A stretch of 64,000 nt of DNA from an uncultured SAR86 cluster bacterium. GTDB taxonomy: Bacteria > Pseudomonadota > Gammaproteobacteria > Magnimaribacterales > AG-339-G14. Positions 8,123 to 61,213 of this stretch are shown piece by piece; positions within the stretch are counted from its first letter, which is position 1, and every line of letters begins with the position of its first letter. The translations under genes were made by a program, and so were the position numbers. The stretch spans positions 5,583 through 69,582 of the forward strand of contig CACJRI010000003.1 of NCBI GenBank assembly GCA_902595715.1, read 5' to 3'. The notes under the pieces are model-generated. The model saw only the letters and a list, made by a program, of their open reading frames with translations, made no database searches and was not told the origin of the DNA.

Positions 8123-8128
8123 AAGCAG

Positions 8129-10159: not shown

Positions 10160-10217
10160 TTGCCTATCATTATGTTAGATTTATACTGCTTTTCAAATTA
10201 AAGTCTAAGAATCTTAT

Positions 10218-11345: not shown

Positions 11346-11633
11346 ATGGAATCCCAAGCTTTATTAGTTTTGCTTTTGTTTGTTCTTGTGCTTTCAATAT
11401 TTTTGGGTTTTGAGCTGATAAATAAAGTGCCATCGACACTTCACACTCCTCTTATGTCAGGAGCAAACGCGATATCTGGAATTACTATTGTTGGAGCTCT
11501 CTTAGCTTCAGGAGGAGAAGGTACTTTTTCATCAATATTAGTTGGTACTTTTGCCGTTTTCTTTGCCTCCATAAATGTTGTTGGAGGTTATTTGGTCACA
11601 AACAGAATGTTAAAAATGTTTAAGAAAAAATGA
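11346..11633 (+). CDS. pntAB: NAD(P) transhydrogenase alpha subunit part 2 (membrane dII-a)
   Basis: 95 aa with three predicted TM helices, including HTPLMSGANAISGI. It lies between pntAA and pntB, giving the split three-gene arrangement. Confidence 0.88.
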   Translation: MESQALLVLLLFVLVLSIFLGFELINKVPSTLHTPLMSGANAISGITIVGALLASGGEGTFSSILVGTFAVFFASINVVGGYLVTNRMLKMFKKK

Positions 11634-15663: not shown

Positions 15664-15674
15664 ATAATTTAACT

Positions 15675-16757
15675 ATGTCTAGAAATTACAATTTTTGTGC
15701 GGGACCCGCAGCACTTCCAAATGAAGTTTTGGATCAATTAAATGCAGAAATACCTGATTGGCAGGGAAAAGGCTTATCTGTTATGGAAATGAGTCATAGA
15801 AGCAAGGAATTTGTAGATATAGCTGAAACTGCAAAACAGGATTTCATTGACCTCTTGGAAATAAATGATGACTACGATGTTCTTTTTATTCAAGGAGGTG
15901 CTTCGTTGCAATTTTCAATGATTCCAATGAATCTATTAGATAATAATCAGGCTCTATGCAGTTATCTTGATGTTGGTCAGTGGTCTAAGAAAGCTATCAA
16001 GGAAGCAAAAAAATTTGGACAGGTAGAAATTTCTGCATCGTCAGCAGATGTATCCTATAAAAAATATCCAAAGCCTAATACCTGGAAAATCGATCCTGAG
16101 TCTGTTTTCACCCATCTCGTATTGAACGAAACAATCGATGGTGTTTGTCTAAGAAACTTAGATCATCTTCCTAAGAGAAGCCTCATTGCAGACTGCTCAT
16201 CATGCATTCTTTCTGAACCTCTTGATGTTTCAAAATTCAGTATGTTGTATGCGGGAGCTCAAAAAAATATTGGCCCTTCTGGATTAGCCATCATTGTCAT
16301 AAAAAAAGATCTCTTAAAGGAAAAAGATAATCTTCCCGCTATGATGCAATATAAGACTTATGCTGATTCAGACTCAATGTATAACACGCCACCTACATTT
16401 GCATGGTACTTATCAGGTATGGTTTTTAAATGGTTAAAAAAGAATGGGGGTCTTATGAACCAAAAGGTTATTAATGAGTCAAAAGCTAAAAAACTTTACT
16501 CTTATATTGACCAAAGCGATTTTTATAAAAATGATGTAGATAAAGAATCTAGATCCATTATGAATGTCCCGTTTCTATTGAAAGAAGACTCTTTAAATAA
16601 GAAGTTTTTAGAAGAGTCTGAAGAAAGCGGATTATTAAATCTTGCTGGTCACAGATCTGTAGGAGGGATGAGGGCAAGTATTTACAATGGAGTTCCAGAA
16701 GACGGGGTAGATGCTTTGATAGATTTTATGAAAGAATTTGAAAAAAATAATGGCTGA
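15675..16757 (+). CDS. serC: phosphoserine aminotransferase
   Basis: 360 aa. Has NFCAGPAALP, MEMSHRSKEF and YAGAQKNIGPSGL (PLP lysine region). Confidence 0.93.
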   Translation: MSRNYNFCAGPAALPNEVLDQLNAEIPDWQGKGLSVMEMSHRSKEFVDIAETAKQDFIDLLEINDDYDVLFIQGGASLQFSMIPMNLLDNNQALCSYLDVGQWSKKAIKEAKKFGQVEISASSADVSYKKYPKPNTWKIDPESVFTHLVLNETIDGVCLRNLDHLPKRSLIADCSSCILSEPLDVSKFSMLYAGAQKNIGPSGLAIIVIKKDLLKEKDNLPAMMQYKTYADSDSMYNTPPTFAWYLSGMVFKWLKKNGGLMNQKVINESKAKKLYSYIDQSDFYKNDVDKESRSIMNVPFLLKEDSLNKKFLEESEESGLLNLAGHRSVGGMRASIYNGVPEDGVDALIDFMKEFEKNNG

Positions 16758-17838
16758 AAAAAATCTACCAAAAAATTTAACTGACAATAGAAGAGAAATT
16801 GATCAAATCGATCAAAAACTTCTCAATCTTATTCATGAAAGATCTAAGCTTGTTATAAATGCTGGAAAAATAAAAAAGAAATCAGGCGAGAAGACATTTT
16901 ATAGACCGGACAGAGAAGCAAGTTTAATTAAGACTTTACTGAAGAAAAATAAAAGCTCTATTCCCTCAGAAAATATTAAATTTATTTTTAAAGAAATTAT
17001 CTCTGCATGTTTCACTCTTGAAAAAAAAATAAGAGTTTATTACTTGGGCCCTAAAGGAACTTTCTCCGAAATTGCAACAACAACACATTTTGGAAGTTCT
17101 GTTGAAAAGATAGAAACAGAAAATATCCGAGATATTTTTAAAGAAGTAGCTAAGGACAAAAATTCATACGGGATGTTGCCTTTTGAAAATTCAATAGAAG
17201 GAATGGTTAATCAATCTTTAGATTATCTTATTGAAAGTAATTTAAAAATTTGCTCAGAATTGGAATTACCTGTCGAACATTGTCTGATTTCATCTGAAAA
17301 AAATATAAAAAATCTTAATACCATATATGGGCATCCCCAAGCTTTTGCCCAATGCCGTAATTGGCTGAGTAAAAATCTTCCCAGAGTAAAAATATTGGAA
17401 GTCGAGAGCTCTGCAAAAGCAGCTCAATTGATTAAGAATAAATCTGGAAAAGGCTCTATAGGACCAAAAAAAATTTCTGAGATTTATTCTTTAAATTTAT
17501 TGAAAGAAAAAATTCAAGATCAAATAACTAACACAACTAGATTCTTAGTAATTGGACATGAATTTCCGGGAAAAACATCTGATGATAAAACTTCAATAAG
17601 CTTAAATTTAAAGAATGAACAAGGAGCTTTATTAAAAGTTTTGCAGATAGTAAATAAGAATAAAATTAATCTTACAAATATCTTATCCAGACCAGTTAAG
17701 AAAAATAAGTGGCAATATTCTTTCTTTTTAGAATTCTCTGGGCATGCTTCAGATAAAAATGTTTTAAAATTATTTAAAGAACTTCAAAAGGTTGGTTATG
17801 ACTTTAAAGTCTTAGGTTCCTATCCAGCAGCATACTGA
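16738..17838 (+). CDS. pheA: bifunctional chorismate mutase / prephenate dehydratase (P-protein)
   Basis: The chorismate mutase part has REIDQIDQKLLNLIHERSKL. The prephenate dehydratase part has YYLGPKGTFSE...TRFLVIG. A C-terminal ACT domain follows. The start may be the ATG at 16750 (ATGGCTGA overlap with the serC stop) rather than 16738. Confidence 0.9.
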   Translation: MKKIMAEKNLPKNLTDNRREIDQIDQKLLNLIHERSKLVINAGKIKKKSGEKTFYRPDREASLIKTLLKKNKSSIPSENIKFIFKEIISACFTLEKKIRVYYLGPKGTFSEIATTTHFGSSVEKIETENIRDIFKEVAKDKNSYGMLPFENSIEGMVNQSLDYLIESNLKICSELELPVEHCLISSEKNIKNLNTIYGHPQAFAQCRNWLSKNLPRVKILEVESSAKAAQLIKNKSGKGSIGPKKISEIYSLNLLKEKIQDQITNTTRFLVIGHEFPGKTSDDKTSISLNLKNEQGALLKVLQIVNKNKINLTNILSRPVKKNKWQYSFFLEFSGHASDKNVLKLFKELQKVGYDFKVLGSYPAAY

Positions 17839-17841
17839 TCT

Positions 17842-18969
17842 GTGAAAAATTCATTTTTAGAAAATCTCAACCAAGGTGTTCTTGGGCTTAAGCCCTATGA
17901 ACCAGGATTGCCGCTAGAACATACCCAGAAAAAATTAGGTCTGAAAAAAATGATAAAACTAGCAAGTAATGAAAATCCTTTGGGACCAAGCCCAAAGGCT
18001 TTAGATATGCTTCAAGGAAAAATGAATAGTTTTTCATCCGAATTAAACAGATATCCTGATGGAAACGCTTATGATTTAAAGGATGCAATATCAAAAAAAT
18101 ATAATGTAGATATGGACCAAATAACAATAGGCAATGGCTCTAATGATTTAATTGAGTTTGTTTCCAGATGTTTTTTAGGAGAAGGCAAAAAAGCAATTTA
18201 TTCTCAACATGGTTTTGCCATTTACCCATTAGCTATAAAAGCAACTGGGGCTGTTCCAGTAAAATCAAAAGCAAAAAATTGGGGTCACGATTTAGAATTA
18301 ATGTCTGATCTAATAGATGACAAAACAAAAGTTGTTTTTATTGCCTCACCAAATAATCCAACTGGAACGGCAAAAACTCTTCTAGAGATAAAAGATTTTT
18401 TGACAAACTTACCTGAAGATATCCTAGTCTTTTTAGATCAAGCTTATTTTGAATACATAGAAGGTTCAGAGTTTGATATTCCTTTTTCATTAATTGATGA
18501 TCATCCCAATTTAGTCATTTCACGAAGTTTTTCTAAAGCTCATGGATTGGCAGCATTAAGATTAGGTTTTTGCGTTTCAAATCCTGAGTTATCTGACTAT
18601 CTTAATAGAGTCAGACAGCCCTTTAACGCAAACTCTCTAGCCTTAGATATGGGAAAAGTAGCTCTTTCTGATCAAGAACATATCAGTAAATCTATAAAAA
18701 TTAATTCTTCCGGTATGGATAGAGTAAAAAAAGCTTTCACTAATCTTGACTATAACTTTATTGAATCCTGGGGAAATTTTATTTCTTTTGATGCCAAGCA
18801 GGACTCTGATATTGCTTTTCAATATTTTTTAGAGAAGGGTGTTATCCTCAGATCGTTAAAAGTATATGAAATGCCTCAACATTTGAGAGTCTCCATCGGC
18901 ACTGAAGAGGAGATGGATTTTTTTCTCCAAGTATTAGAGGACTATGAAAAAGACCTTTCTAAAAAATAA
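17842..18969 (+). CDS. hisC: histidinol-phosphate / aromatic aminotransferase
   Basis: GTG start. Has LASNENPLGPSP and SRSFSKAHGLAALRLGF (PLP lysine). Its position between pheA and tyrA matches Pseudomonas hisC2. Confidence 0.88.
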   Translation: MKNSFLENLNQGVLGLKPYEPGLPLEHTQKKLGLKKMIKLASNENPLGPSPKALDMLQGKMNSFSSELNRYPDGNAYDLKDAISKKYNVDMDQITIGNGSNDLIEFVSRCFLGEGKKAIYSQHGFAIYPLAIKATGAVPVKSKAKNWGHDLELMSDLIDDKTKVVFIASPNNPTGTAKTLLEIKDFLTNLPEDILVFLDQAYFEYIEGSEFDIPFSLIDDHPNLVISRSFSKAHGLAALRLGFCVSNPELSDYLNRVRQPFNANSLALDMGKVALSDQEHISKSIKINSSGMDRVKKAFTNLDYNFIESWGNFISFDAKQDSDIAFQYFLEKGVILRSLKVYEMPQHLRVSIGTEEEMDFFLQVLEDYEKDLSKK

Positions 18970-44429: not shown

Positions 44430-45068
44430 ATGTCATCAAAACAAAGAGTAGTCATAATTGACAGAAAGAATGCAAACATAAATTCCCTGAAGAATGCAAT
44501 TCAACACGTAAGCGATTTTCATTTATCTGTTTCAAGTGATATGAAAGAAATTCAAAAAGCTGATTTTTTAGTTTTAGCTGGTGTGGGCGCTTTTGGTGAT
44601 GGCATGGCTGATCTTATAGAAAAAGATCTGGTTGATGGGCTTATAAATCAAGCGCTTATTAAAAAAAAGCCTTTTCTTGGCATATGTTTAGGTATGCAGA
44701 TGCTTTTTTCTGAATCAGAAGAAAAAGGGATTAATAAAGGCCTAAATTTAATTGAAGGCAAAGTTAAATATCTTGATCTTGATCCTTCTTATAGAATTCC
44801 TCATGTTGGATGGAATAACATTGAATACGAAGAAGATAAAAAAATATTCAATGGTTTAGGGCCTGATAAGAACTTTTATTTTGTGCATAGCCTTTCAGCT
44901 CAATGTGATGAGAAAAATATAATTGCTAAAGTTGACTATGATAAGAAAATAACCGCAGCAGTCCAAAAAGATAATATTTTAGGCTTTCAATTTCATCCAG
45001 AAAAAAGTCAAGGGAATGGGATGATTCTTTTAAGAAACTTTTTATCAGGTAGATACTACGATGCTTAA
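44430..45068 (+). CDS. hisH: HisH-like glutamine amidotransferase subunit dedicated to glycan synthesis (WbuY type)
   Basis: 212 aa. The class-I GATase triad is present: nucleophile in PFLGICLGMQML and H/E in FQFHPEKS. Its context is next to a HisF-like gene and WbpG-like amidotransferases, not other his genes. Confidence 0.82.
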   Translation: MSSKQRVVIIDRKNANINSLKNAIQHVSDFHLSVSSDMKEIQKADFLVLAGVGAFGDGMADLIEKDLVDGLINQALIKKKPFLGICLGMQMLFSESEEKGINKGLNLIEGKVKYLDLDPSYRIPHVGWNNIEYEEDKKIFNGLGPDKNFYFVHSLSAQCDEKNIIAKVDYDKKITAAVQKDNILGFQFHPEKSQGNGMILLRNFLSGRYYDA

Positions 45069-45870
45069 ACCAAGACTTATACCTTGCATAATAACTAGAG
45101 GTGACATGGTAGTACAAAGTATAAACTTTAAAAGATATCTTCCAATTGGAAATATAAAAACAGCAATAGAATTTTTTGTAAAATGGGATGTTGATGAAAT
45201 AGTAATATTAGATATTACAGCTTCCAAAGAAAACCGACATCCAAATACTGAATTAATTGAATGGGCCTCATCTGAGTGTTTTGTCCCTCTTACTGTTGGC
45301 GGAGGGATTAAAACCTCCCAAGATATTAGAGATTTATTAAATTCTGGAGCTGATAAAGTTTGCATAAATTCAGCTGCTAGGAATGATATAGCTCTTGTGG
45401 AAGAAGCAAGCAACATTTTCGGTGCACAATGCATTACTGTCTCAGTTGATGTTATTTTTAAAGATGGGGAATACAAAATTTATACATACGAAAACAATGA
45501 TATTTTAGATATCTCTCTCATTTCATACATTAAAGGTCTAGAACAAAAAGGAGCTGGAGAAATTTTTTTAAATTCCGTTAATAGAGATGGTAGTAAAGAG
45601 GGCTATGATATAAAACTCATAAAATCCGTAACGGATAATGTAAACATACCAGTAATTGCATGTGGCGGGGTAGGAAAAAATAGCCATTTTTCAGAGGCAA
45701 TAATTTATGCAAACTGCTCTGCAGTTTCAGCATCAAATATTTTTCAACATACAGAACATAGTACAATTTCTGCTAAAGCCATGTTGCTAAAAGACGGAGT
45801 AGAAGTGAGGCTTAATGGAGACGTTAAATACAGTAATTTTGAATTTGATCAAATGGGAAGACCTTTCTAA
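45061..45870 (+). CDS. hisF: HisF-like cyclase/ammonia-channel subunit dedicated to glycan synthesis (WbuZ type)
   Basis: 269 aa. TIM-barrel HisF signatures RLIPCIITRGDMVVQS, ILDITAS and TVGGGIK...ACGGVG are present. Confidence 0.82.
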   Translation: MLKPRLIPCIITRGDMVVQSINFKRYLPIGNIKTAIEFFVKWDVDEIVILDITASKENRHPNTELIEWASSECFVPLTVGGGIKTSQDIRDLLNSGADKVCINSAARNDIALVEEASNIFGAQCITVSVDVIFKDGEYKIYTYENNDILDISLISYIKGLEQKGAGEIFLNSVNRDGSKEGYDIKLIKSVTDNVNIPVIACGGVGKNSHFSEAIIYANCSAVSASNIFQHTEHSTISAKAMLLKDGVEVRLNGDVKYSNFEFDQMGRPF

Positions 45871-47147
45871 TGAAATATTGCAAGAGATGTATTTATCCTG
45901 AAAATCATCCATTGGGAATTACATTTGATGAGAGGGGTGTTTGCAGCGGGTGTCTGGTTCATGAAGAGAAATATGAAATAGATTGGGAAAAAAAGCGTGA
46001 GGAATTTGATAAATTATTATCTCAGTACAGAAATAAGTTTAACTTCCATTATGACTGCATAATACCGGTTGTTGGTTCAGGAGATGATTTTTTTGTAGTG
46101 GATACTATAAAAAATGAATTCAATATGAACCCTCTGCTTGTAACTTATAACAATCATTTCAATACTAAGGTAGGAATAAGAAACTTAGCTAGATTACTCA
46201 CAGAGTTAGATTGTGACCATATGGTTTCTACTGTTGGGCCTGAAACTGTAAAAGAGATTACAAGACTATCTATTAGAGAGCTTGGAGATATTTATTGGCA
46301 TGTTCTTGCAGGAACGCAAACATTTCCTGTTCAAGTAGCAACTAAATTAAAAATCCCTTTAATCATATGGGGTGTAAATGGTTGGTTAGACCAGGTTGGT
46401 ATGTTTTCCCATCATGATCAAGTAGAAATGACAAAAAAAGTAAGGAAAGAGCATTCTCTTAGGAGGAGAGATGCTGAATCTTTAATTGGAAAAAGTAAAA
46501 ATATTTCAATTAAAGATTTACAAGCTTTTACATACCCTTCAGATAAGCAATTAGAAAAAAACAGAGTAAGAGGTGTCTATTTGGGGAACTATGTATTTTG
46601 GGACTCTCAAAAACAAATAGAAAAAGCTATAGATAAGTTTGGTTATGAAACTATTTCTCAAGAAAGAACATTTAACAATTACGAGTCTATATATTGTTGG
46701 AATAACGCAGGAGTGCATGATTATATTAAATTTCTAAAATTTGGTTACGGGAAAGTAACAGATCATGTATGTAGAGATATAAGACTAAAAAGAATTTCTA
46801 GAGAACAAGGAATAAAGCTTGTAGAAAAATTTCAAAATGTCGAACCAGAAACTCTTGATAAATTTCTTGAATGGGTAAAGCTTTCTAAAGAAGAGTTTAT
46901 GAAATCAATCAATTCATTTAGAGATAAGCGGGCCTGGAAAGAAACAAGCAAAGGAAACTTTGTCTTAAGAGATTCAATTATCAATCATATCGATGATGAT
47001 GGTGTTGATGCTGTCAGATTAAAAGTTAGCGATCCTAGAGAGTACAAGCTGACTGAGTTAAAGGAAGAACATAATATGAATGATGATTACATTCTTTTGG
47101 GTAGAGCTTTCATTGATGAAAATAACTTCAAGGCAATCGAAGGATGA
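45870..47147 (+). CDS. N-acetyl-sugar amidotransferase paralogue 1 (WbpG/PseA/WbuX family) with a degenerate PP-loop
   Basis: 425 aa. The N-terminal zinc ribbon is MKYCKRCIYP...CSGC. It aligns with the downstream paralogue, but where that copy has SGGKDS this one has GSGDDF (46071-46091). Confidence 0.75.
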   Translation: MKYCKRCIYPENHPLGITFDERGVCSGCLVHEEKYEIDWEKKREEFDKLLSQYRNKFNFHYDCIIPVVGSGDDFFVVDTIKNEFNMNPLLVTYNNHFNTKVGIRNLARLLTELDCDHMVSTVGPETVKEITRLSIRELGDIYWHVLAGTQTFPVQVATKLKIPLIIWGVNGWLDQVGMFSHHDQVEMTKKVRKEHSLRRRDAESLIGKSKNISIKDLQAFTYPSDKQLEKNRVRGVYLGNYVFWDSQKQIEKAIDKFGYETISQERTFNNYESIYCWNNAGVHDYIKFLKFGYGKVTDHVCRDIRLKRISREQGIKLVEKFQNVEPETLDKFLEWVKLSKEEFMKSINSFRDKRAWKETSKGNFVLRDSIINHIDDDGVDAVRLKVSDPREYKLTELKEEHNMNDDYILLGRAFIDENNFKAIEG

Positions 47148-48259
47148 AATACTGTAAAAATTGTGTAATGCCAGATACAAAACCTGGAGTTTACTTAGAT
47201 GAGAGAGGTTTATGTAATGCTTGTAGGAGTCAAGAAATAAAATCACAAATTGATTGGAAAGAAAGATTTAAAGATTTAGAAAAAATAGTTTCAGAAATCA
47301 AAAAACAAAATCATCCCTTTTATGATTGTATTGTTCCTGTAAGCGGAGGAAAGGATAGTTGGGTGCAAGCACTAACTTTATCAAAGGAGCTTGGACTAAA
47401 GACACTTTGTGTAACTTTAGCTAACCACCTTCCTACAACGGAAGGAATAGCAAACCTCAATAACATGATCAAAGACCTGAATGTAGATCATATGAAAATT
47501 AATCTAAAACCAAGTTTTTATAGGTCAGTCAGAAGAAAGTGTACTATTGAACAAGGCGAACCAAATTGGGCGGAACATTGTGCAGTGTTTTCTAGCGTAG
47601 TAAATATTGCTGTCATTTACGATGTTCCACTAATTGTTTGGGGTGAAGATATAGCATTTGAGTTTGGAGGCGGCCAAAGACAAGAAAGTACTGCAAGCGC
47701 GATGGAAATTGATAGAAGCGATTTAAATAAAGAAGGAAAGGTAATTGAAGATTGGCTTGATGAAGATTTATCCGAAAGAGATACTTTTTTTTATAAATAT
47801 CCTGATTATGAGATTCTAAAACAGGCTAACATTCAAAGTATTTATCTTGGGCATTACACAAACTGGTATGGAAGAAAGAACTATGAAGAAGTTAAAGCTA
47901 GAGGTTTTTCAGAAAGAAAACTAGGACCACTATCTGGAAATTATCTTTCTTACGATAATATCGATGAAAAGCTTTGTGAAATAAATATATGGTTTAAATA
48001 TCTAAAATTTGGATTTTGGAGATCAACAGATCAGACTTGCTACGATATATGGAACAATAGGTTGACAAGAAAAGAAGCAATAAAAATAGTGAATGATCTC
48101 AGTGATCAATTCCCAGAAGAATATTTTCAAGATTTTTTAAGATTTCACAATATCTCAGAGACTGAGTTTTGGGAGATAGCTGAAAACTATAGAAATAAAG
48201 ACATTTGGGAGTTTTCAGGAAACAAGTGGAATTTAAAATACCCTCTTAAAGATATATAA
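47144..48259 (+). CDS. N-acetyl-sugar amidotransferase paralogue 2 (WbpG/PseA/WbuX family), canonical PP-loop
   Basis: 371 aa. Has MKYCKNCVMP...CNAC and the PP-loop VPVSGGKDSW (47342-47359). Confidence 0.8.
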   Translation: MKYCKNCVMPDTKPGVYLDERGLCNACRSQEIKSQIDWKERFKDLEKIVSEIKKQNHPFYDCIVPVSGGKDSWVQALTLSKELGLKTLCVTLANHLPTTEGIANLNNMIKDLNVDHMKINLKPSFYRSVRRKCTIEQGEPNWAEHCAVFSSVVNIAVIYDVPLIVWGEDIAFEFGGGQRQESTASAMEIDRSDLNKEGKVIEDWLDEDLSERDTFFYKYPDYEILKQANIQSIYLGHYTNWYGRKNYEEVKARGFSERKLGPLSGNYLSYDNIDEKLCEINIWFKYLKFGFWRSTDQTCYDIWNNRLTRKEAIKIVNDLSDQFPEEYFQDFLRFHNISETEFWEIAENYRNKDIWEFSGNKWNLKYPLKDI

Positions 48260-48292: not shown

Positions 48293-49714
48293 ATGAATAG
48301 TGAAATACAAGACCAAATTAGAAAGTTTTTAGATTTTGAAAAAAGTCTTGAAATAGAGAATCTTGTTCAGAAGAACTTGTCTATCTGGCATATCTTAAGG
48401 ACTGCGGTATTTGAGGAGATCTTTAGAGAAAAAAATTTATCTTTAGGCTCGCAAAAAAATAACGACCTAAGAAAATTTTCTCTAAATCTTCAATATTTAT
48501 ACCTTCTTTTTCGAGAGATGCTTTCTTTTTCTAATATTTTTAATAAAGCAGATGTTTTGTTGATAAATAATGACCCTAAAACAAAAATAATTGATGGAAG
48601 TTTTACAACAAAATTAGTCTGGGGATTTACTAAAGCATTAGAGTCTGATTTTACGATAAGTATTTTAAATACTCAGTCAGTTCATTTAAACCCAGACTTA
48701 AATTCTATAAATGTTTCTCGAATTCTATCTTTATTCTCAAGGATGATAGCTATATTTAAAGATCTTACAGGATGGAAAATTTCAGCAAATTATTTGGATA
48801 AAAGCATAAATAAATATTTCGGGATAAGACTCGACTGGAAAAGAATTTATAGGGACAACTTCATAAGACAAGTATTCCTTGGCTACATATTAAGATTGAT
48901 TATAAAAATAAAGAGTCCCAAAATCATAATCTTCTCAGATAATGGCTCAATGAGCTTGGTGAATAAAATTGCAAATGATAGAAATATCCCAACAGTCGAT
49001 TATCAACACGCAGTTTTATCAGATTACTATATTATTTATAATCACAATGAAGGCTCTAGTTCATTGTATAAAGAACATCTCTCCGATTATTTTTTTTCAT
49101 GGGGAGAATATAGACTTGAAAGATATAAAGATAATTATAAATGCAGAGTAGTTGGTAATGCTTTCTTTGAGGAGTCAAGGAAAGAATTTATTCAAGTTAA
49201 AAAAAACCAAAAGAGCTTGCTACTTGTTTCTGACGGGAAATACACTAGAGACGAATTAGTTGATTTAGCAATTCAATTATCTAAAAAATTTAAAGATTTC
49301 ATTATTTATTACAAACTTAGACCTGAAGAGTACGAGAATTGGTTACTTAATTACCCTAAAGAATTCTCTGAAATTTCAAATATTAATGTTATCGACAATG
49401 ATGATACTAATCTCTACTACTATTTAACTCTTTGCTCTTATGTAATAGGAACGAATTCTACTGTTTTACTTGAAGCTTTGCCTATTTCACAAATTATTAT
49501 TTATAAAATAGGTTGGTTTTTCGAAATGAATGATTACATAGATGATGGTTTGTTCTTATCGGCTGATTCTTGTAGCGAAGTAATGGATCTAATTTCAAGT
49601 AAAAAAAATGCAAATGGCAAAATAAGTTCGGACTCTATATTTAAAGAAGAATCTCAGTACTTAACATATCAAAATGTAAAAGAGATTTTAGATAAAAAAT
49701 CTTTCAATGATTAG
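48293..49714 (+). CDS. hypothetical protein (possible GT-B-like surface-carbohydrate / nonulosonate transferase)
   Basis: 473 aa with no motif I can assign with confidence. The C-terminal half (SLLLVSDGKYTRDELVDLAIQLSKKF...YYKLRPEEY...SYVIGTNSTVLLEAL) has the alternating strand/helix look of a Rossmann-like GT-B half-domain. Confidence 0.35.
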   Translation: MNSEIQDQIRKFLDFEKSLEIENLVQKNLSIWHILRTAVFEEIFREKNLSLGSQKNNDLRKFSLNLQYLYLLFREMLSFSNIFNKADVLLINNDPKTKIIDGSFTTKLVWGFTKALESDFTISILNTQSVHLNPDLNSINVSRILSLFSRMIAIFKDLTGWKISANYLDKSINKYFGIRLDWKRIYRDNFIRQVFLGYILRLIIKIKSPKIIIFSDNGSMSLVNKIANDRNIPTVDYQHAVLSDYYIIYNHNEGSSSLYKEHLSDYFFSWGEYRLERYKDNYKCRVVGNAFFEESRKEFIQVKKNQKSLLLVSDGKYTRDELVDLAIQLSKKFKDFIIYYKLRPEEYENWLLNYPKEFSEISNINVIDNDDTNLYYYLTLCSYVIGTNSTVLLEALPISQIIIYKIGWFFEMNDYIDDGLFLSADSCSEVMDLISSKKNANGKISSDSIFKEESQYLTYQNVKEILDKKSFND

Positions 49715-52712: not shown

Positions 52713-54155
52713 ATGGATTTTTTTAATTTTTTCAAAGCAAGCTTTTTCTTCGTTATTACTAAGTACATAGTAATCCTATTAAATTTTATACGATCAATCA
52801 TCATAGCCTCATCATTAGGGCCAAATAGTCTTGGAGAATATGCAATATTGGTAATTATTCTTGAGTATTTCTACTATACAAATTTAGGAATCTTTTTCTC
52901 TATGACAAAAGAAGTATCAATAAATATTGATCAAAAGGGCAAACAAGAATATGTCAAGAAAATAATAAACAATACCGTATCTTTTCAATCAATAAATTCA
53001 ATTTTTGTATTAGCCTTTTTCGCCTTATTTTTTGGTTTTGAATATTATGGATTTTTTCAAATTGAAATCTTTAATACTAATTATCTATTTTATATTTTAA
53101 CTCTAGGGATAATTTACCAAGCTAAAAGCTTCATTTTCAGTTATTTACGCCTTTACGATCGAATAAATGAGATGGTTAAAATTGAGTTTTTTTCTTCCCT
53201 ATTTGTTTTTCTAGGTATTTACTTTTTTGTTGATGATTTTGGGTTAGATGCAATTTTTCTCATCAGCATCATTGTTAATTTATTTGTGCTAATTCCTTAC
53301 ATAAAAAAAATATCTAATTTTAAGTTCATTTTAGAATTGAAAATAGTACAAGTATTGATCTATGTGGGATTACCTCTCTTGTTGTTTAATTTTTTGTCAT
53401 TAATGATAACTACTATAGACAGAATTATGATTAATCAATTAGTTTCTTCTAACCGTGAAGCACTAGGAATTTACCATTTAGGTTACCTTTTATCCTTTGG
53501 AGTAATGACAGCTTTCAATTCTGTTATTTTTTTGTTGTTGCCAAAAATGTTGAAACAATTTCACTCGTCTAAAGAAGTATATTCTTTAATGTTCAATCAA
53601 ACTAAATTCACAGAATTCATTCTGGCGTCAATTTTAATTTTAGCAATCATTACCATTTCGCCATTTATCCAGTTTTTCCTTGAGGAATACAAGAGAAGTG
53701 TTTTAGTAATGCAGTTGCTTTTGTTTGCTTATTTCATGAAAGGGTTAGCTTTTCTTCCAGAAAGTTATTTAATTGCAAATAACAAACATATGAATACTTT
53801 AGTAATTTTTTTCCTTTCTTTACTAAACGCCTTATTTTTAAATTACTTCTCTATTATTTTGGGATATGGCATTTATGGGGTTGCAATTGCAACAATAGGA
53901 ACTTTCTATATTTATACAGTAGGTATTTTTTGCCTTTATTTTCATTTTGAACAAATAAAAATTTATAAAGGGATTACAAGAGTCATTTTAAGACCAATGC
54001 TTTTTATGACTATATCTACTATTTTATTATATGAAAACATTACCACGCTATGGTTGGTTATTGTTTTTCTTATATTTTATTTAAGAGATATTGTCACTTA
54101 TCTTAAAAAGACCATAAATCTATCTCAGGAACTTTTAAACTCAAAAAAGTCTTAA
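52713..54155 (+). CDS. wzx: polysaccharide flippase (Wzx, MOP superfamily)
   Basis: 480 aa with about 12-14 TM helices and no soluble domain. The length and hydrophobic profile are typical of MOP/PST proteins, and it sits inside the glycan locus. Confidence 0.7.
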   Translation: MDFFNFFKASFFFVITKYIVILLNFIRSIIIASSLGPNSLGEYAILVIILEYFYYTNLGIFFSMTKEVSINIDQKGKQEYVKKIINNTVSFQSINSIFVLAFFALFFGFEYYGFFQIEIFNTNYLFYILTLGIIYQAKSFIFSYLRLYDRINEMVKIEFFSSLFVFLGIYFFVDDFGLDAIFLISIIVNLFVLIPYIKKISNFKFILELKIVQVLIYVGLPLLLFNFLSLMITTIDRIMINQLVSSNREALGIYHLGYLLSFGVMTAFNSVIFLLLPKMLKQFHSSKEVYSLMFNQTKFTEFILASILILAIITISPFIQFFLEEYKRSVLVMQLLLFAYFMKGLAFLPESYLIANNKHMNTLVIFFLSLLNALFLNYFSIILGYGIYGVAIATIGTFYIYTVGIFCLYFHFEQIKIYKGITRVILRPMLFMTISTILLYENITTLWLVIVFLIFYLRDIVTYLKKTINLSQELLNSKKS

Positions 54156-54909: not shown

Positions 54910-57510
54910 ATGACTAGGATTAGATTTTTTTTTAGTTTATTTATTATTTTAATAATCCTTATAATTGGCAGTGTTTTCATAACCTCATTTTTTTATTTCA
55001 ATAATAGTTTTTATTCTAAAGCAATAGAGATCTCTAAAGATTATCCAAGATTCCAAAAAATTATTGATTTATCTGACTCCTTCTTTAATGAGATTGATTT
55101 AAGAAAGTATCTCAATGAGAGTTTTTTGCCTGAGACAAAATTAGTTAGATTGTATTTAACTGGTTCTGATCTAAAAAATATTAACGAGCAAATTGATAAG
55201 TTTAAAAATATTGGGTTTATAAGAGATGAATTAAATTATTGGCGAAAAGCGAAGATAAAAGTTAATGGCTCTGAGGAAAAAATAAAATATAAATTTCACG
55301 GCACTTCAATTTCTCCTTTAAGCAAACATAATTCAATTTCTTTTAGGATAAAGCATAAAAAAGACGGGAATTACTTGAATAATATGAGGAGATTTTCATT
55401 ACTCACTTATAAAGACGATTTAGATATATCAACAATCATCATAAATCAAATAGCATCTGACTTTGGTCTAATTTCGCCAGTTGGAAAGATGGTTGCTTTA
55501 AAGATTAATGATATTGATATTGGCATGTATATGTTAGTGGAACATCATAGTAAAGAGTGGTTTGAAAAATTTCATAAAATGACCAATTATTCACTTTTTA
55601 AATCTAATGATGATTGGGATAGAAAAGAAAATACTGGGGGAACAGCTCATTTATCTAGTTCAGATAACTTGGTAAACAACAAAGAAATAAAAGGCTCTTC
55701 CCTAGATCATGCTACAAACCTTGCCGCATTAAAGTTATTACTCGAGGCTATACAAAAAAAAGATATGGGAACTCTAAAGCAACTAATCGATTTAGATTAT
55801 GCCGCAAAATTTGTTGCATTAAATATATTGGCGAATAATGCACACCATGTTTCTGGTGATAATTTTAAATATTTATATGATCAAACAAGAGGTAAATTTA
55901 AGTTTTTATTCAGAATCGAAGACTCAATAAAACCAATTCAAAAATCATTAGAAAGTTTCAACTCCTCCTGGTTTGAAAGCTATTTTGTAAAATCTCAAAC
56001 TCTCAATCTTTTTTATCTCTTAACTCAAGATGATGAATTCAGAAATCTCAGAGACGAATATCTCATGAGATTAATTGAAAAAAAAGATCTTTTGATTGAA
56101 ACAGCCAAAAAGACTTATGATGAAAATTATGATGTTTTATATGCAAGTAAAAATTCTTTAAGGAAGGCAAACTTTTTCAAAAATGAGTTTTTTAAAAATT
56201 TAACAAACAATTTCGAAGTAATCGAACAATACTTAAATTATGGAAAAGTTTTCTTAACTTTTGAGAAAACAAATCCTTCTCAAAATTTCTATGATGTTTT
56301 ATCTGTCTTTAACGACTCATACGTAACTTCCACCTTGAAATTTAAAAATGATAAAGAAATTATTTTTAAAGAAATTCAACTAATGCCCTTAGAAATTAAA
56401 GATACATTAGATTCAAAAAATAGAATCACTAAATCTATCCTCAAAGATCAGAATTTATATTCTAAATTTGTTATAGAAAATAACGTAACGAATCAGACAC
56501 TTGCTGAGAAAGACATATATATAAATTATTTAAATAGCTTTTCTTTAATAAATTATGAAGATTCTATTTCTACTCTTAAATCTAACAACGTGAATTATTC
56601 ATTAACGAAAAAAGAGTTAATCGTTCTTCCAGGAAATTACAACATTAAAAGCGACTTAATTTTTCCTGAAAATTTAAAAATTATATTTTCAGCAGGCTCA
56701 AATTTTTTTATTGATCAAAATAAATCAATTTTAGTCAAATCAGACTTTGAAATAAAAGGTACTAGCGACATGCCAATTACTATAGAAAGTAAAACTAAAG
56801 ACAAACCTTTTGGAGTTTTAGCGATTTTTGGTAAAGAAAAAATTGCGAATGTTTTAATTAATAATCTCAGAATAAATGGAGGATCCGAGGCTTCCTTAGA
56901 AGGTGTAAGATACTTGGGTCAAATTTCAATACATAATGCGAACGTAAAAATTTTTGACTCTATTATCGAAGGAAGTAGTTCAGATGATGGGGTAAATATA
57001 AGAGACAGTGAAGTATTGATTGCAAACTCGATATTTAAGAATAATTCTGCAGATCAAATTGATTTAGACTTTTGTTCCGGAGAGGTAAATAAAAATATTT
57101 TTCTTATAAGTAAAGACAGCAAAACCAAAATTGACTTTAATGGAGATGGATTAGATCTTAGCGGGTCAAAGATAAACATCTCTGAAAATAAATTTACAGG
57201 ATTCTTAGACAAGGCTTTAAGTATTGGTGAAGAGTCAAAAGCTTTAATTAATAAAAATTTATTTGATGACAATAACAGCGCTATAACTGTGAAAGATGGT
57301 TCTCAGGCCTATGTTTTATCAAATAATTTTATGAATAATAAACAAGACTTTAGCCTTTTTATAAAAAAAAGATTTTATGATTCTCCAACTTTATTCATTA
57401 AGAAAAGCGATACCAACAGGTCAGTTCAGAATAACTTAAAGAATAAAATAAACTCTATACGATTAAGTTCCGAAGAAGAAATGAGAAGATTATATGCAAC
57501 AAATAGATAA
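54910..57510 (+). CDS. CotH-family atypical kinase homologue with N-terminal membrane anchor and C-terminal parallel beta-helix domain
   Basis: 866 aa. The N-terminal anchor is RIRFFFSLFIILIILIIGSVFITSFFYF. The CotH-like core has KIKYKFHGTSISPLSKHNSISFRIK and NAHHVSGDNFKYLYDQTRGKFKFLFRIEDS. The C-terminus carries PbH1-type repeats (NANVKIFDSIIEGSSSDDGVNIRDSEVLIANSIFKNNSADQIDL...GDGLDLSGSKINISENKF...NNSAITVKDGS). Confidence 0.75.
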   Translation: MTRIRFFFSLFIILIILIIGSVFITSFFYFNNSFYSKAIEISKDYPRFQKIIDLSDSFFNEIDLRKYLNESFLPETKLVRLYLTGSDLKNINEQIDKFKNIGFIRDELNYWRKAKIKVNGSEEKIKYKFHGTSISPLSKHNSISFRIKHKKDGNYLNNMRRFSLLTYKDDLDISTIIINQIASDFGLISPVGKMVALKINDIDIGMYMLVEHHSKEWFEKFHKMTNYSLFKSNDDWDRKENTGGTAHLSSSDNLVNNKEIKGSSLDHATNLAALKLLLEAIQKKDMGTLKQLIDLDYAAKFVALNILANNAHHVSGDNFKYLYDQTRGKFKFLFRIEDSIKPIQKSLESFNSSWFESYFVKSQTLNLFYLLTQDDEFRNLRDEYLMRLIEKKDLLIETAKKTYDENYDVLYASKNSLRKANFFKNEFFKNLTNNFEVIEQYLNYGKVFLTFEKTNPSQNFYDVLSVFNDSYVTSTLKFKNDKEIIFKEIQLMPLEIKDTLDSKNRITKSILKDQNLYSKFVIENNVTNQTLAEKDIYINYLNSFSLINYEDSISTLKSNNVNYSLTKKELIVLPGNYNIKSDLIFPENLKIIFSAGSNFFIDQNKSILVKSDFEIKGTSDMPITIESKTKDKPFGVLAIFGKEKIANVLINNLRINGGSEASLEGVRYLGQISIHNANVKIFDSIIEGSSSDDGVNIRDSEVLIANSIFKNNSADQIDLDFCSGEVNKNIFLISKDSKTKIDFNGDGLDLSGSKINISENKFTGFLDKALSIGEESKALINKNLFDDNNSAITVKDGSQAYVLSNNFMNNKQDFSLFIKKRFYDSPTLFIKKSDTNRSVQNNLKNKINSIRLSSEEEMRRLYATNR

Positions 57511-58230: not shown

Positions 58231-59943
58231 ATGCAAAAAGAATACCATTTTAAAGCCTCTATCATCATACCCGTTCTAAATGAAGAAAGGTTCATAGAAG
58301 AATGTATCGAGTCTGTGGTAAGCAATACAGATGATATTGAAAAGATGGAAATTATAATTATTGATGGAGGAAGTGAAGATACTACTGTTGAAATAGTTAA
58401 AAAAATCTCTTCAAAATATCAAAATGTAATATTGCTCCATAATCCAAAAAAAATTACTCCTATTTCTTTAAACCTTGGCATCAAGGAGTCTTCTGGAGAA
58501 TTTATAGTTAGACTAGATGCTCATGCTCTATATTCAAAAAATTATGTAAATAAATGCATTCAAGTATTAGAAAATTCTGATGAAAATATTGGGAATGTAG
58601 GAGGATTTATTGAAACAAAATCTACAAATTCTTCGATTTTCTCTAGGGCGGTTTCTTTATGCTTATCAAGTATTTTTGGGGTAGGAATATCTAAATTTAG
58701 AATTTCTAAACCAACAAAAAAAGAATTTGTTGATACTGTTCCTTTTGGATGTTTTAGAAGGTCTTTGTTTGATGAGTTAGGTTTTTTTAATGAGGAAGAG
58801 CCTAGAAATGAAGATTTAGAGTTTAATCAAAGAATATTAAGGGCAGATAAAAAGATAATCTTAGATCCAGACATACACTCTACTTATTTTTCGAGATCAA
58901 CTCTAAATAAACTTTTCTCACAGCAATTTGATAATGGGAAAATAGTTACAAACAAATATAGAGGGAAAGAGTCTTTTCATAAACTTAGACATTTCGTTCC
59001 TTTACTTTTCTTTACTTATCTTTTATCAATTCCTTTTTTTAGTTTATTTGAAACTACATATTTTACAGAAGCTAACCTTTATCTATATCCTGGATTTCTA
59101 TATTTAATCCTAAATGTAAGTTTTAGTATTTTTATTGCATTGAGAAATAAAGATATTTTATTGTTCCCTAGTTTAATATTTGTATTTTTTGTAATTCACT
59201 TTAGTTATGGCCTAGGTTCATTTTTTGGCTTATTTCAAATTGAAAAGAAAGTTTCTCTTCAAGAATTTTTAGAAGAAACCTTTCCATATAAGTCAACATT
59301 TATAAGAAAAGATTTTGGCTTTTTCACTAACTTGGTCAAATTCTTTTCTCTCAGAGTTGCCTATTTTCTATATCTCTTTGGTCTTTCGGCGAATGCTTTG
59401 ACTATTTCATCTATCTTCATATCATCCTTTTCTTTTTACTTTCTTTATATTGGAATGACTAGTGAGAATATTTATTTTGCGATTTTAGGTTATTTGTTAA
59501 TGTGCCTTGTTCTTTTTATTGATTTTGTAGATGGTACTTTATCTAGAATAAGTAAAATAAAATATAAAACTGGAGAAGCCTTAGATAATTTACCGCCTGA
59601 CATAATAAGAGTTGGTTCTATTTTTTCTTTTGGAGTTTTGTCTGAAAATATAATTCTCATTTTAATGTCTCTAATTAGCTCTGTAATAATAACAAGATAT
59701 ATTCCCGAAACTGTAGAAAACATTAAGCCAAAACGGGACTGGATCAAAATCTTGATAGGATCAAGAATGTCAATATCAGGCTTGAGGCTAATCTCTTTAT
59801 TTTTTATGCCTAGTTTAATTTTCGTAACATTTTTATTGCCTAACTTGAAAGTTTTTTACTCATCATTTTTAGTAGCCATGTATTTTATTTTTTCTTTAAT
59901 TTGGTTGGCTTTTTCCCTAGAAGATAAGGAGTTTAAAAATTAA
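58231..59943 (+). CDS. fusion protein: family-2 glycosyltransferase + polytopic CDP-alcohol-phosphotransferase-like domain
   Basis: 570 aa. The N-terminal GT2 has ASIIIPVLNEERFIEECIESV, IIIDGGSEDTT, RLDAHA and EDLEFNQR. TM helices follow. The C-terminal domain has SANALT and DFVDGTLSRISKIKYKTGEALDNLPPD (59521-59601). This is the CDP-alcohol motif with SR for AR and a 4- rather than 3-residue final spacer. Confidence 0.7.
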   Translation: MQKEYHFKASIIIPVLNEERFIEECIESVVSNTDDIEKMEIIIIDGGSEDTTVEIVKKISSKYQNVILLHNPKKITPISLNLGIKESSGEFIVRLDAHALYSKNYVNKCIQVLENSDENIGNVGGFIETKSTNSSIFSRAVSLCLSSIFGVGISKFRISKPTKKEFVDTVPFGCFRRSLFDELGFFNEEEPRNEDLEFNQRILRADKKIILDPDIHSTYFSRSTLNKLFSQQFDNGKIVTNKYRGKESFHKLRHFVPLLFFTYLLSIPFFSLFETTYFTEANLYLYPGFLYLILNVSFSIFIALRNKDILLFPSLIFVFFVIHFSYGLGSFFGLFQIEKKVSLQEFLEETFPYKSTFIRKDFGFFTNLVKFFSLRVAYFLYLFGLSANALTISSIFISSFSFYFLYIGMTSENIYFAILGYLLMCLVLFIDFVDGTLSRISKIKYKTGEALDNLPPDIIRVGSIFSFGVLSENIILILMSLISSVIITRYIPETVENIKPKRDWIKILIGSRMSISGLRLISLFFMPSLIFVTFLLPNLKVFYSSFLVAMYFIFSLIWLAFSLEDKEFKN

Positions 59944-60010: not shown

Positions 60011-61213
60011 TTGTATTCTTTTTTTTATGCTATTTGGGGTACAAGTTGGACATTTCCATTTATTAATATTAATTATTCTTATTTATGGTTTGGTACGGCA
60101 ATAATGGCTATATTTTTTTCAAATTCAAAGAAAGTTAGCTTTGATGGTTTTTTAATAATATTTTTAATTGTAGTGTGGACGATTCTTTACTTCTTTATTG
60201 GCATTCCTGATAATCTTTCTTCGGACAGAAGTAGCGATTTTTATTATTTATTAACATATGTTCTAAAAATTTTTCTTGGAATTTTTTTAGTATTTACTTT
60301 TGTAAATTTATTTCAGAGTAATGAAGATATTAGACTTTTTTTTGTTTCTCTATGTTTGTTTATCATTCCAATAATCTTCTATCTTGCCTATAAATATTTA
60401 TATGACTATGGATTAGATTTTATAGGGGTGCAGGTAGATGACAGCCTTAGAGGAACAAAAACCTTTAAAAATTCTTTAGCAACATCATTAGTCTTGATAA
60501 CACCCTTCATTTTTGCCGGAATATTTTCTGGAAGAAATAGATTTATTTTCGTCTTAGCATTCTTTTCAGTTTTATTTTTTTTATACTACGTTAATTCCAG
60601 ATCTGCAGTAATAATTTTAATTTTTGAAATTTTATTTTTCTTTTTCTTATCACAGTCTGAGAATATTAAGAGCAACTTAAGATATATATTCATTTCCTCA
60701 GTCGTATTAATCTTCATATCTGGGATATCTCTTTCTGATTGGATTCTAAAAAATAATGCTTTTTCAGACAGTGGACTTCCAGAATATTTTCAATCTAATG
60801 AAGAAAACCTTATTGAAACTCATAGGGGATGGCTCTTGATAGAGTCATTAAATGGCTATCTTGATTCATCTTTAATGGGAAATGGCATTGCAACATTTAG
60901 AATACGCCCGACAAATCTGGACTCAAGAACAGATACTCACAATGATTATGCTCTATTGTTATATGAGCAGGGCACTATAGGGTTTGCATTAATTTTATTT
61001 TTAATAATTTGGAGAATTTCAGTTAATGTAAAATTATCGAAAAATTATAATGACAGATTCTTAGAAGCATCTTCCTGTGCTTTATTTGGATTACTTATCT
61101 CGCTACTCTTCGTGAATCTTATTCAATCTTTAGTTTTTTGGACAATCATTGCGTTTAGTTATGTTTTTTTTGATATTTACAAAAAAAATAATTTAGAAGA
61201 AAAAAATAATTGA
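60011..61213 (+). CDS. Wzy/O-antigen-ligase-family polytopic membrane protein (putative polymerase)
   Basis: 400 aa with about 10 TM helices. The periplasmic loop ends in the family motif TDTHNDYALLLYEQGTIGFALILFLIIW. The TTG start is uncertain: the frame is open upstream to 59921 without an ATG/GTG. Confidence 0.65.
   Translation: MYSFFYAIWGTSWTFPFININYSYLWFGTAIMAIFFSNSKKVSFDGFLIIFLIVVWTILYFFIGIPDNLSSDRSSDFYYLLTYVLKIFLGIFLVFTFVNLFQSNEDIRLFFVSLCLFIIPIIFYLAYKYLYDYGLDFIGVQVDDSLRGTKTFKNSLATSLVLITPFIFAGIFSGRNRFIFVLAFFSVLFFLYYVNSRSAVIILIFEILFFFFLSQSENIKSNLRYIFISSVVLIFISGISLSDWILKNNAFSDSGLPEYFQSNEENLIETHRGWLLIESLNGYLDSSLMGNGIATFRIRPTNLDSRTDTHNDYALLLYEQGTIGFALILFLIIWRISVNVKLSKNYNDRFLEASSCALFGLLISLLFVNLIQSLVFWTIIAFSYVFFDIYKKNNLEEKNN

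Follow-up and report, generated by a model that had tools for sequence, protein, structure and literature searches.

We analysed a 64,000-nucleotide stretch of contig CACJRI010000003.1 from an uncultured SAR86 cluster bacterium (hereafter the window), which encodes a protein combining a CotH domain with a parallel beta-helix. Its gene stands between those of a DUF4956 membrane protein and a VTC-domain protein (Table 1). The module of CotH, VTC and DUF4956 proteins is already known, as are extracytoplasmic CotH proteins; the features of the present variant are an N-terminal anchor, the fusion to a beta-helix and an active site of a His type. This anchored, beta-helix-fused, His-type variant is widespread in marine bacteria and archaea. 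We tentatively favour the view that the protein serves as the outward-facing part of a trans-membrane module for phosphoryl supply (VTC, DUF4956, CotH-beta-helix) which modifies a surface glycan. An earlier note on this DNA had described the protein as an exported CotH 'kinase' joined to a glycan-binding or glycan-cleaving fold, with a neighbouring polyphosphate (polyP)-type enzyme as possible phosphoryl donor. Our analysis confirms the observation and supports its interpretation in part.

A large family of CotH proteins fused to a beta-helix

The open reading frame (ORF) is real, and the four peptides quoted in the earlier note are found in its product at residues 3-30, 676-719, 745-762 and 788-807. 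More than 50 clusters of near-full-length homologues were found in a database search; these proteins are about 870 amino acids long, share 29-85% identity and come mainly from marine metagenomes. The AlphaFold2 (AF2) model, built on the homologue alignment, reached a predicted local distance difference test score (pLDDT) of 90.6 and a predicted template-modelling score (pTM) of 0.79. Its layout comprises an alpha/beta domain extending to about residue 444, a beta-sandwich (445-560) and a region of regular short strands (563-830).

Several comparisons support the claim of a CotH-like core. Pfam family PF08757 matched residues 128-441 (E=7.2e-11; 42.6 bits, gathering cut-off 23.8) and also 20 of the 45 aligned homologues. 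The family profile matched 5jd9 in the PDB with E=1.3e-7; phmmer with the single sequence found no match there. When the AF2 model was compared with the PDB by Foldseek, Bacillus cereus CotH (5jda) was the top match (E=4.9e-12, target TM-score 0.74, 385 columns). NCBIfam offered no meaningful model for the CotH, DUF4956 or VTC proteins of the window.

A profile search of 1.84 billion cluster representatives gave 9,918 matches at E<=1e-3 and 3,285 at E<=1e-30. Among the best 150 matches, 129 were at least 700 amino acids long, nearly all of them co-linear with the profile in a single stretch. Members are present in many bacterial and archaeal phyla. CotH-beta-helix proteins are thus a large uncharacterised family rather than a rare fusion, and their conservation exceeds chance by far.

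A conserved module with VTC and DUF4956 proteins

The three genes are closely packed on the + strand. The DUF4956 gene is separated by 18 nt from the CotH-beta-helix gene, which overlaps the VTC gene by 17 nt, and the next gene follows after 2 nt. The neighbouring polyP-type enzyme of the earlier note is real and is the VTC-domain protein. With phmmer it was related to yeast Vtc4 (3g3q, E=1.5e-5), K13 corresponding to the catalytic K200, an RLR motif to R264/R266 and a Lys to K281; the alignment to 3g3q and 8i6v placed the same residues. The counterparts of these four residues are conserved in 22 orthologues adjoining CotH-beta-helix genes. In the same set the motifs R.E.K, R.K.R.R, E.K, Y.R, R.T.D, E.K and SK are at least 90% conserved, a pattern which we take, from the Vtc4 structure papers, to fit an intact tunnel active site. 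By Pfam and hydropathy the protein consists of the VTC domain alone, with neither an SPX domain nor a fused VTC transmembrane channel domain.

The model of the DUF4956 protein (AF2, pLDDT 75) shows 5 transmembrane helices and a C-terminal alpha/beta domain, whose best PDB neighbour in Foldseek is the C-terminal ACT-like domain of MgtC (2lqj, E=4e-3). The motif SIVRFRxAxKDPxD is invariant, and some homologues are named 'YhiD' in database entries. Homology to the yeast VTC channel was considered and rejected: there was no sequence match in the PDB, and Foldseek returned only the weak match of the MgtC/ACT-like C-domain.

Synteny was assessed by profile hidden Markov model search of 34 loci, obtained by taking one genome per GTDB species, and of the additional contigs L035-L039. 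The 34 loci belong to Flavobacteriales, SAR86, Pelagibacteraceae, a deltaproteobacterial symbiont, Sulfurovum, SAR324, Rhodospirillaceae, Chloroflexota, Patescibacteria, Omnitrophota, Calditrichaceae, Bacteriovoracaceae, Nanoarchaeota, Thaumarchaeota and Methanosarcinales. In 24 of all these loci the flanking sequence extends for 2 kb or more in both directions. VTC and DUF4956 genes are both adjacent in 17 of these 24, in varying gene order; one has VTC alone, and six, all from Bacteroidota, have neither. The 17 trio loci span SAR86, Pelagibacteraceae, Deltaproteobacteria, SAR324, Rhodospirillaceae, Chloroflexota, Patescibacteria, Omnitrophota, Calditrichaceae, Nanoarchaeota and Methanosarcinales. 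The arrangement is also found in the metagenome and genome contigs L035-L039. Such cross-phylum synteny strongly backs a functional tie between the CotH-beta-helix protein and its VTC neighbour.

Some loci carry more than one copy. Two from Flavobacteriales/Crocinitomicaceae (L005, 7728-14286; L006, 5832-11517) contain two tandem CotH-beta-helix paralogues, with no VTC or DUF4956 gene within 8 kb; no lineage of the sample other than Bacteroidota, to which they belong, breaks the trio. The Nanoarchaeota single-amplified genome AM-311-K23 (L034) contains two complete trios (7929-12150 and 13956-17991), convergent and tail to tail, with a Wzx gene between them. The two represent different subfamilies, one with a GDN...R-x-E site and the other with an HxxxxxN...GFD site.

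The earlier note found the VTC partner and missed both the third partner, DUF4956, and the published trio (PMC7112168). CotH, polyP-polymerase (VTC) and DUF4956 genes have been described as accessory genes beside Gram-positive pel loci (Whitfield et al. 2020, PMC7112168) and occur as a set in Clostridium perfringens NELoc-2 (PMC2879425). In Streptococcus intermedius the trio is SIR_1592-1594, and deletion of SIR_1592 or SIR_1594 lowered Pel production and aggregation (PMC12345266). The authors of these studies propose a role in regulation or in 'phosphate metabolism' (PMC7112168, PMC2879425, PMC12345266). The trio is also present on plasmids of Pseudobutyrivibrio and Planococcus, where the Prokaryotic Genome Annotation Pipeline (PGAP) names the products CotH kinase family, polyphosphate polymerase domain-containing and DUF4956 proteins. 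On the plasmid of Planococcus maritimus (L041, 5389-12084) the genes after it encode a hypothetical protein of some 690 amino acids, a HEAT-repeat protein and a glycosyltransferase, which is the gene order of C. perfringens CP4_0465-0468 in PMC2879425. In the table of that paper DUF4956 appears as a 'tubulin/FtsZ GTPase', probably a mis-annotation. The literature searched yielded only the pel and NELoc descriptions, with no functional study of bacterial VTC, DUF4956 or CotH together with polyP, and no paper on the beta-helix-fused, His-type CotH variant.

A remodelled and conserved active site

Bacillus subtilis CotH is a proven kinase, inactivated by D228Q and by D251A (PMC7821199). Around the site the B. 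cereus chain reads TQN222-F-D224-GFV-H228-N229-YALY...IPW-D247-YD, with D224 equivalent to D228 of B. subtilis. Family alignments to B. cereus CotH by HMMER and by hhalign both end at N310/N222, just ahead of the catalytic loop, and a multi-family L-INS-i alignment was therefore used for residue equivalences, which are those of aligned sequences and not of superposed coordinates. In this alignment the column of the catalytic Asp (D224 in QNFDGFVHN) holds His312, and His stands here in all beta-helix-fused relatives examined. The catalytic-loop Asn (N229 of B. cereus) aligns with N318. W-D247-Y aligns with R335-I336-E337; the column of the metal-binding Asp (D251 of B. subtilis) is Ile336, and the invariant Glu337 stands one position further on in an R-x-E motif.

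Conservation was counted over 144 cluster representatives at 50% or lower identity. It amounts to 82% for H312, 86% for G316, 80% for D317 and 96% for N318, to 81% for R335 and 88% for E337 (with a further 7% Asp), to 95-100% for K148, N200 and E219, and to 86% for H247. The metal-binding Asp is kept in the sister branches L032, P0054 and L015. Two CotHs from Gram-positive plasmid trios keep both the Asp and the W-D motif (NTD...WDYD in Pseudobutyrivibrio, NID...WDF in Planococcus), which makes the His variant a trait of the beta-helix-fused clade and not of the trio itself.

The conserved polar set K148, N200, E219, H247, H312, D317, N318, R335 and E337 argues for an enzyme rather than a scaffold. 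The pattern of conservation indicates that the active site is under selection and altered in its chemistry, and not that of a pseudokinase in decay. The site is remodelled, with His312 for the catalytic Asp and R-x-E for W-D, and its chemistry probably differs from the Ser/Thr phosphorylation carried out by Bacillus CotH. The 'kinase' of the earlier note accordingly stands as to fold and loop Asn, but its catalytic Asp is replaced and the label is unproven. That note had taken missing catalytic residues as the mark of a pseudokinase or of a purely structural protein; the Asp is indeed absent, and the site as a whole is conserved.

A conventional ATP-using CotH Ser/Thr protein kinase, acting on envelope or secreted proteins as Bacillus CotH acts on CotB and CotG, would agree with the Pfam and fold membership, with the retained Asn (equivalent to N171 of PKA) and acidic metal ligand, and with the proven activity of the B. 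subtilis enzyme. We regard it as improbable, given that His replaces the catalytic Asp and that the domain is predicted to reside where ATP is lacking. Moreover, no CotB/CotG-like substrate gene with Ser/Lys-rich repeats was seen in the ORF translations between 45 and 64 kb, and such a kinase would account for neither the linkage to VTC and DUF4956 nor the beta-helix.

Predicted topology

The basic stretch and single hydrophobic helix noted earlier are present and conserved. In a hydropathy scan residues 6-24 form the sole strongly hydrophobic 19-mer (Kyte-Doolittle 3.1), preceded by MTRIR, and 41 of the 45 homologues have a lone N-terminal hydrophobic segment with a K/R-rich N-flank. The AF2 model has an N-terminal helix at residues 2-29, followed by a helical stalk. 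By hydropathy and flanking charge (positive-inside rule) the protein is predicted to carry an N-in/C-out signal anchor with about 835 extracytoplasmic residues, in agreement with the extracytoplasmic bulk claimed before. A Gram-negative marine bacterium is the probable host: gyrA, rpsA, uvrC, pntAB and the gene of an HlyD-type membrane-fusion protein lie in the window, and the nearest genome match is a SAR86 single-cell genome with 84% identity. In such a host the ectodomain would be periplasmic. The conserved anchor and the changed catalytic loop led us to abandon the reading of a cytoplasmic, Bacillus-like kinase.

That an extracytoplasmic CotH should surprise in view of the Bacillus protein was overstated in the earlier note. 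S. intermedius SIR_1594 is described as a secreted CotH (PMC12345266), and Zetaproteobacteria possess large secreted or surface proteins with a CotH domain (PMC8250860). VTC-linked CotHs on Gram-positive plasmids have N-terminal hydrophobic signal-like sequences too.

The beta-helix and its conserved residues

The AF2 model shows about 11 regular three-strand rungs at residues ~563-830 with a register of 22-24 residues. The only Pfam match of the window protein in this region is NosD (residues 673-815), with 21.0 bits below the cut-off of 23.6; PF13229 (Beta_helix) matched 33 of the 45 homologues, with a best E of 3e-14. Foldseek found PL6 alginate lyases, CBA120 tailspikes, AlgG and AlgE4 (E 1e-4 to 1e-3, TM-score 0.25-0.39), the solved beta-helices being 6kfn, 7o84, 4nk6, 2pyh and 5w6p. 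Taken together, these results support the claim of a fused parallel beta-helix beginning at about residue 560.

The beta-helix is the most constrained part of the protein. Among the 144 representatives 22 of its residues are 95-100% conserved: D692, D693, G694, N696, N712, D715, Q716, D718, D720, D746, G747, D749, S751, D767, K768, S771, G773, E774, K795, D796, K819 and K820. They sit at equivalent positions of successive rungs and make up the motifs SDDG, DQxDLDFC, GDGLDxSGS, DKxxSxGE, KD and KK, in which D, K, N, S and E form a near-invariant ladder. Archaeal members share these motifs, and a paralogous subfamily at greater distance (P0054 and the paralogues in L005, L006 and L034) has them in modified form. 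In a search of the PDB with the family profile no solved structure matched this motif set by sequence.

The beta-helix might be a polysaccharide lyase, hydrolase or epimerase that acts on the glycan of the locus and determines its chain length, release or modification; the CotH domain would then be non-catalytic, and VTC and DUF4956 would serve regulation or phosphate homeostasis. The strong conservation of the beta-helix, its best structural neighbours (PL6 lyases, tailspike depolymerases, AlgG/AlgE), the loss of the canonical kinase Asp and the Bacteroidota members that do without adjacent VTC or DUF4956 all agree with this. Nevertheless we consider it less likely than the phosphoryl-supply module, though it is one of the two main rivals of that model. 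The Foldseek matches are weak, and the conserved polar constellation of the CotH domain speaks against a mere scaffold. Mannuronan C5-epimerases of the AlgG/AlgE type carry the motif DPHD or YG(F/I)DPH(D/E); no His is found among the conserved beta-helix residues, which makes a motif of this type unlikely. A regulatory role would also leave the near-obligate three-gene synteny and the translational overlap across phyla unexplained. Of the glycan-binding or glycan-cleaving domain proposed earlier the fold is thus supported, while cleavage is a suggestion at the level of the fold.

Even less do we expect a non-enzymatic adhesin or structural surface protein, comparable to the invasins of Mucorales. 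CotH proteins of Mucorales serve as surface ligands according to the literature, and beta-helices occur in pertactin and PfbA, both among the Foldseek matches. Adhesins evolve fast, however, and here dozens of charged residues are invariant across phyla. A protein tethered to the inner membrane of a Gram-negative host would not reach the cell surface, and the linkage to VTC and DUF4956 would again be left without explanation. This reading is very improbable.

The beta-helix is invariant across organisms with unrelated surface glycans, which points to a ligand common to all of them. This suggests polyP or the polyprenyl-diphosphate-linked reducing end as candidates, rather than a lineage-specific polysaccharide.

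The surrounding polysaccharide locus

From about position 29 kb onwards the window is a Wzx/Wzy-type surface polysaccharide locus, whose features are listed with those of the module in Table 1.

Table 1. Coordinates of the CotH-beta-helix gene, its domains and the neighbouring genes in the window
Feature	Position	Strand	Evidence and remarks
CotH-beta-helix gene, whole ORF	54910..57510	+	ATG start, 866 aa; ~870-aa homologues with 29-85% identity; AF2 pLDDT 90.6
Signal anchor, residues 1-30	54910..54999	+	Basic MTRIR and one hydrophobic helix; predicted uncleaved, N-in/C-out
CotH (atypical protein-kinase-like) fold, residues ~101-444	55210..56241	+	PF08757, 5jd9 profile match, Foldseek 5jda
Altered catalytic region, residues 309-338, NNAH312HVSGD317N318...FR335IE337D	55834..55923	+	Multi-family alignment; conservation in 144 representatives
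Beta-sandwich linker, residues ~445-560	56242..56589	+	Strands E445-E542 in AF2 model; no Pfam match
Right-handed parallel beta-helix, residues ~561-830	56590..57399	+	AF2 strands, Foldseek, PF13229 in homologues, 95-100% conserved residues
DUF4956 membrane protein, 230 aa	54199..54891	+	PF16316 E=2e-13; 5 predicted transmembrane helices and C-terminal ACT-like domain, MgtC/YhiD-like
VTC-domain protein, 244 aa, without transmembrane helix	57494..58228	+	PF09359 E=1.6e-36; Vtc4-like triphosphate-tunnel enzyme
Wzx-type flippase, directly upstream of DUF4956	52713..54155	+	PF01943; same adjacency in L037, L004, L034
GT2 and CDP-alcohol phosphatidyltransferase fusion, directly after VTC	58231..59943	+	PF00535 E=2e-27, PF01066 E=8.5e-6
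Wzy_C/O-antigen-ligase-like polymerase	60011..61213	+	PF04932 31.6 bits, just under the cut-off of 31.7; also called in L035, L037
AT3-SGNH fused O-acyltransferase, 686 aa	49707-51767	+	
Acetamidino-sugar set: HisH-like WbuY, WbuZ, two tandem WbuX	44430-48259	+	TIGR03573, E of 1e-111 and 1e-119
473-aa ORF inside the polysaccharide locus	48293-49714	+	No Pfam or NCBIfam match; similar-size unannotated gene at the same position in L035

Unlike the published trio, which is contiguous with a pelDEADAFG operon, the trio of the window shows no pel genes in its flanks; they carry Wzx, the GT2/CDP-alcohol transferase fusion, Wzy_C and an AsnB-like amidotransferase instead. The adjacency of Wzx and DUF4956 recurs in other loci (Table 1). 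In distant lineages the immediate neighbours of the trio mostly belong to glycan assembly as well: GT1 and GT-C (PMT_2) glycosyltransferases, UDP-glucose dehydrogenase and an epimerase, and further a carbamoyltransferase, a cis-prenyltransferase and methyltransferases. Two trios, on contigs L038 and L039, lie outside glycan loci. Their VTC gene is followed by that of an inorganic pyrophosphatase (L038, 11677-12321) or, on the opposite strand, of a low-molecular-weight phosphotyrosine phosphatase (L039, 11474-11875), and both are thus further neighbours concerned with phosphate chemistry.

The GT2/CDP-alcohol fusion has 570 amino acids, with the GT2 domain at residues 10-183 and a multi-pass CDP-alcohol domain at 387-521; conserved counterparts occur in L001, L002, L035 and L036. 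Possibly the glycan receives a phospho-alcohol substituent from this enzyme, which would be a second phosphate-related step of the operon. The acetamidino-sugar pathway contains a duplicated WbuX N-acetyl-sugar amidotransferase. S-adenosylmethionine-dependent methyltransferase genes directly flank the trio in a Nanoarchaeota metagenome-assembled genome (L012, 6042-8398) and in one of an unclassified phylum (L021, 4400-5158); one of the enzymes is fused to GT1. They recall the capping of glycans by phosphate and then methyl, which is of the WbdD type. When 51.5-61.5 kb was scanned for promoters and terminators, promoter-like sites were fewer than in shuffled sequence and no terminator was convincing, which is consistent with one long operon yet uninformative.

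Proposed mechanism

We propose that the soluble, cytoplasmic, Vtc4-like VTC protein would work at the inner side of the membrane and spend ATP to make polyP or some related phospho-anhydride. The MgtC-like DUF4956 protein would dock VTC through its ACT-like domain and pass or present the product across the membrane. In the periplasm or on the outside of the cell, where ATP is lacking, the anchored CotH-beta-helix protein would take up this donor and pass phosphate on to a surface polymer lying in the groove of the beta-helix. As the module lies within a Wzx/Wzy locus beside a flippase, a flipped, lipid-linked or nascent glycan would be the likeliest acceptor. Gram-positive trios too sit in polysaccharide loci. 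AT3-SGNH acyltransferases, one of which is encoded in this locus, are an accepted precedent: they carry an activated acyl group out of the cytoplasm and onto a periplasmic glycan. In its most specific form the proposal is a trans-envelope system in which VTC and its MgtC-like partner feed polyP to a His-type ecto-CotH, which phosphorylates lipid-linked or nascent glycans held by the beta-helix, possibly via phospho-His; this full version we put forward with little confidence.

Several points weigh against the proposed phosphoryl-supply module. We know of no kinase-fold enzyme that uses polyP as donor. The literature searched assigns no function to any member of the family. With the canonical catalytic Asp missing, phosphotransfer itself is uncertain. 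The topology of the CotH-beta-helix protein is predicted solely from hydropathy and flanking charge. DUF4956 resembles MgtC and shows no similarity to the yeast VTC channel, its transmembrane part matching nothing in the PDB by Foldseek, and its role as a conduit is accordingly conjectural. Six Bacteroidota loci carry the CotH-beta-helix gene with neither VTC nor DUF4956 nearby, two trios lie outside glycan loci, and the invariance of the beta-helix in bacteria and archaea fits poorly with a lineage-specific glycan as ligand.

The last point would find a ready explanation if the ectodomain handled polyP itself. The beta-helix groove with its ladders of Asp, Lys and Asn, together with divalent cations, would bind the emerging chain, and the CotH-like domain would cut, cap or anchor it, giving a surface or extracellular polyP layer or a release of phosphate. 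About 20 beta-helix residues conserved to 95-100% in bacteria and archaea speak for a universal ligand, and the sole universally co-conserved partner is the polyP-polymerase-like VTC. The trios outside glycan loci, one of them followed by an inorganic pyrophosphatase, point the same way, and to our own reading the Asp/Lys-rich site resembles metal-dependent phosphoanhydride enzymes. On the other hand, such beta-helices are known as glycan-binding or glycan-cleaving folds. The frequent Wzx, glycosyltransferase and sugar-nucleotide neighbours and the Pel phenotype in Streptococcus (PMC12345266) point to glycan, and the Bacteroidota members lack a local VTC. We consider direct handling of polyP doubtful, though it is, beside a glycan-processing beta-helix, the other main rival of the proposed module.

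Proteins of a kinase fold that act outside the cell face an energy problem, there being no ATP beyond the cytoplasmic membrane. The trio, conserved from SAR86 and Pelagibacter to Nanoarchaeota and found repeatedly beside flippases and glycosyltransferases, is a concrete and testable candidate solution. The CotH-beta-helix family comprises thousands of clusters and is common in marine plankton, and no member has been characterised. In its most specific form the phosphoryl-supply module, if real, would contain the first polyP-driven enzyme of a kinase fold and answer how phosphorylation outside the cytoplasm is powered. If the module as proposed is real, it would give a function to DUF4956 and to bacterial VTC-domain proteins, account for the unexplained pel accessory genes of streptococci and clostridia, and open an extra route by which phosphate enters the surface polymers of cells in phosphorus-poor oceans. 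Should the proposal fail, the protein would still be a well-defined beta-helix enzyme with a high degree of conservation.

Comparison with known systems

The modelled beta-helix resembles PL6 alginate lyase/chondroitinase B, AlgG/AlgE and phage tailspikes in fold, rung geometry and an extended polar groove. It differs from them in that the similarity is weak (E 1e-4 to 1e-3) and the beta-helix of the window family is without a conserved His.

Fam20-type kinases of the secretory pathway and Escherichia coli O9a WbdD are kinase-fold enzymes that phosphorylate glycans and not proteins, WbdD acting in O-antigen assembly. They use ATP, in the Golgi lumen or in the cytoplasm, and to our knowledge no such enzyme carries a fused beta-helix or has a link to a polyP polymerase. 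CotH has been described as a distant relation of Fam20C (PMC7821199). Bacillus CotH (5JD9/5JDA) shares with the window protein the fold (TM-score 0.74), an N-lobe alignable by profile and the conserved Asn of the catalytic loop. It is a soluble mother-cell protein of 359 amino acids, whereas the window protein is an anchored ecto-protein of 866, and D228 and W-D251 of the former are His312 and R-x-E337 in the latter.

The VTC neighbour resembles the yeast VTC complex in its Vtc4-type tunnel domain with equivalents of K200, R264, R266 and K281. The proposed logic, a cytoplasmic synthesis coupled to trans-membrane delivery, would be the same. Unlike the yeast complex, the window VTC has neither SPX nor a fused VTC/DUF202 transmembrane domain, its membrane partner is MgtC-like, and the module has a CotH-beta-helix protein, a putative enzyme, on the output side.

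The closest known system is the Gram-positive pel-linked trio, which comprises the same three adjacent families, includes a CotH predicted to be extracytoplasmic and lies in exopolysaccharide loci. There CotH is fused to FN3 or to nothing and keeps the catalytic Asp (NTD/NID), whereas in the window clade it is anchored, joined to a beta-helix and equipped with His at this position. The pel locus is replaced here by a Wzx/Wzy locus, and the hosts are marine Gram-negatives and archaea.

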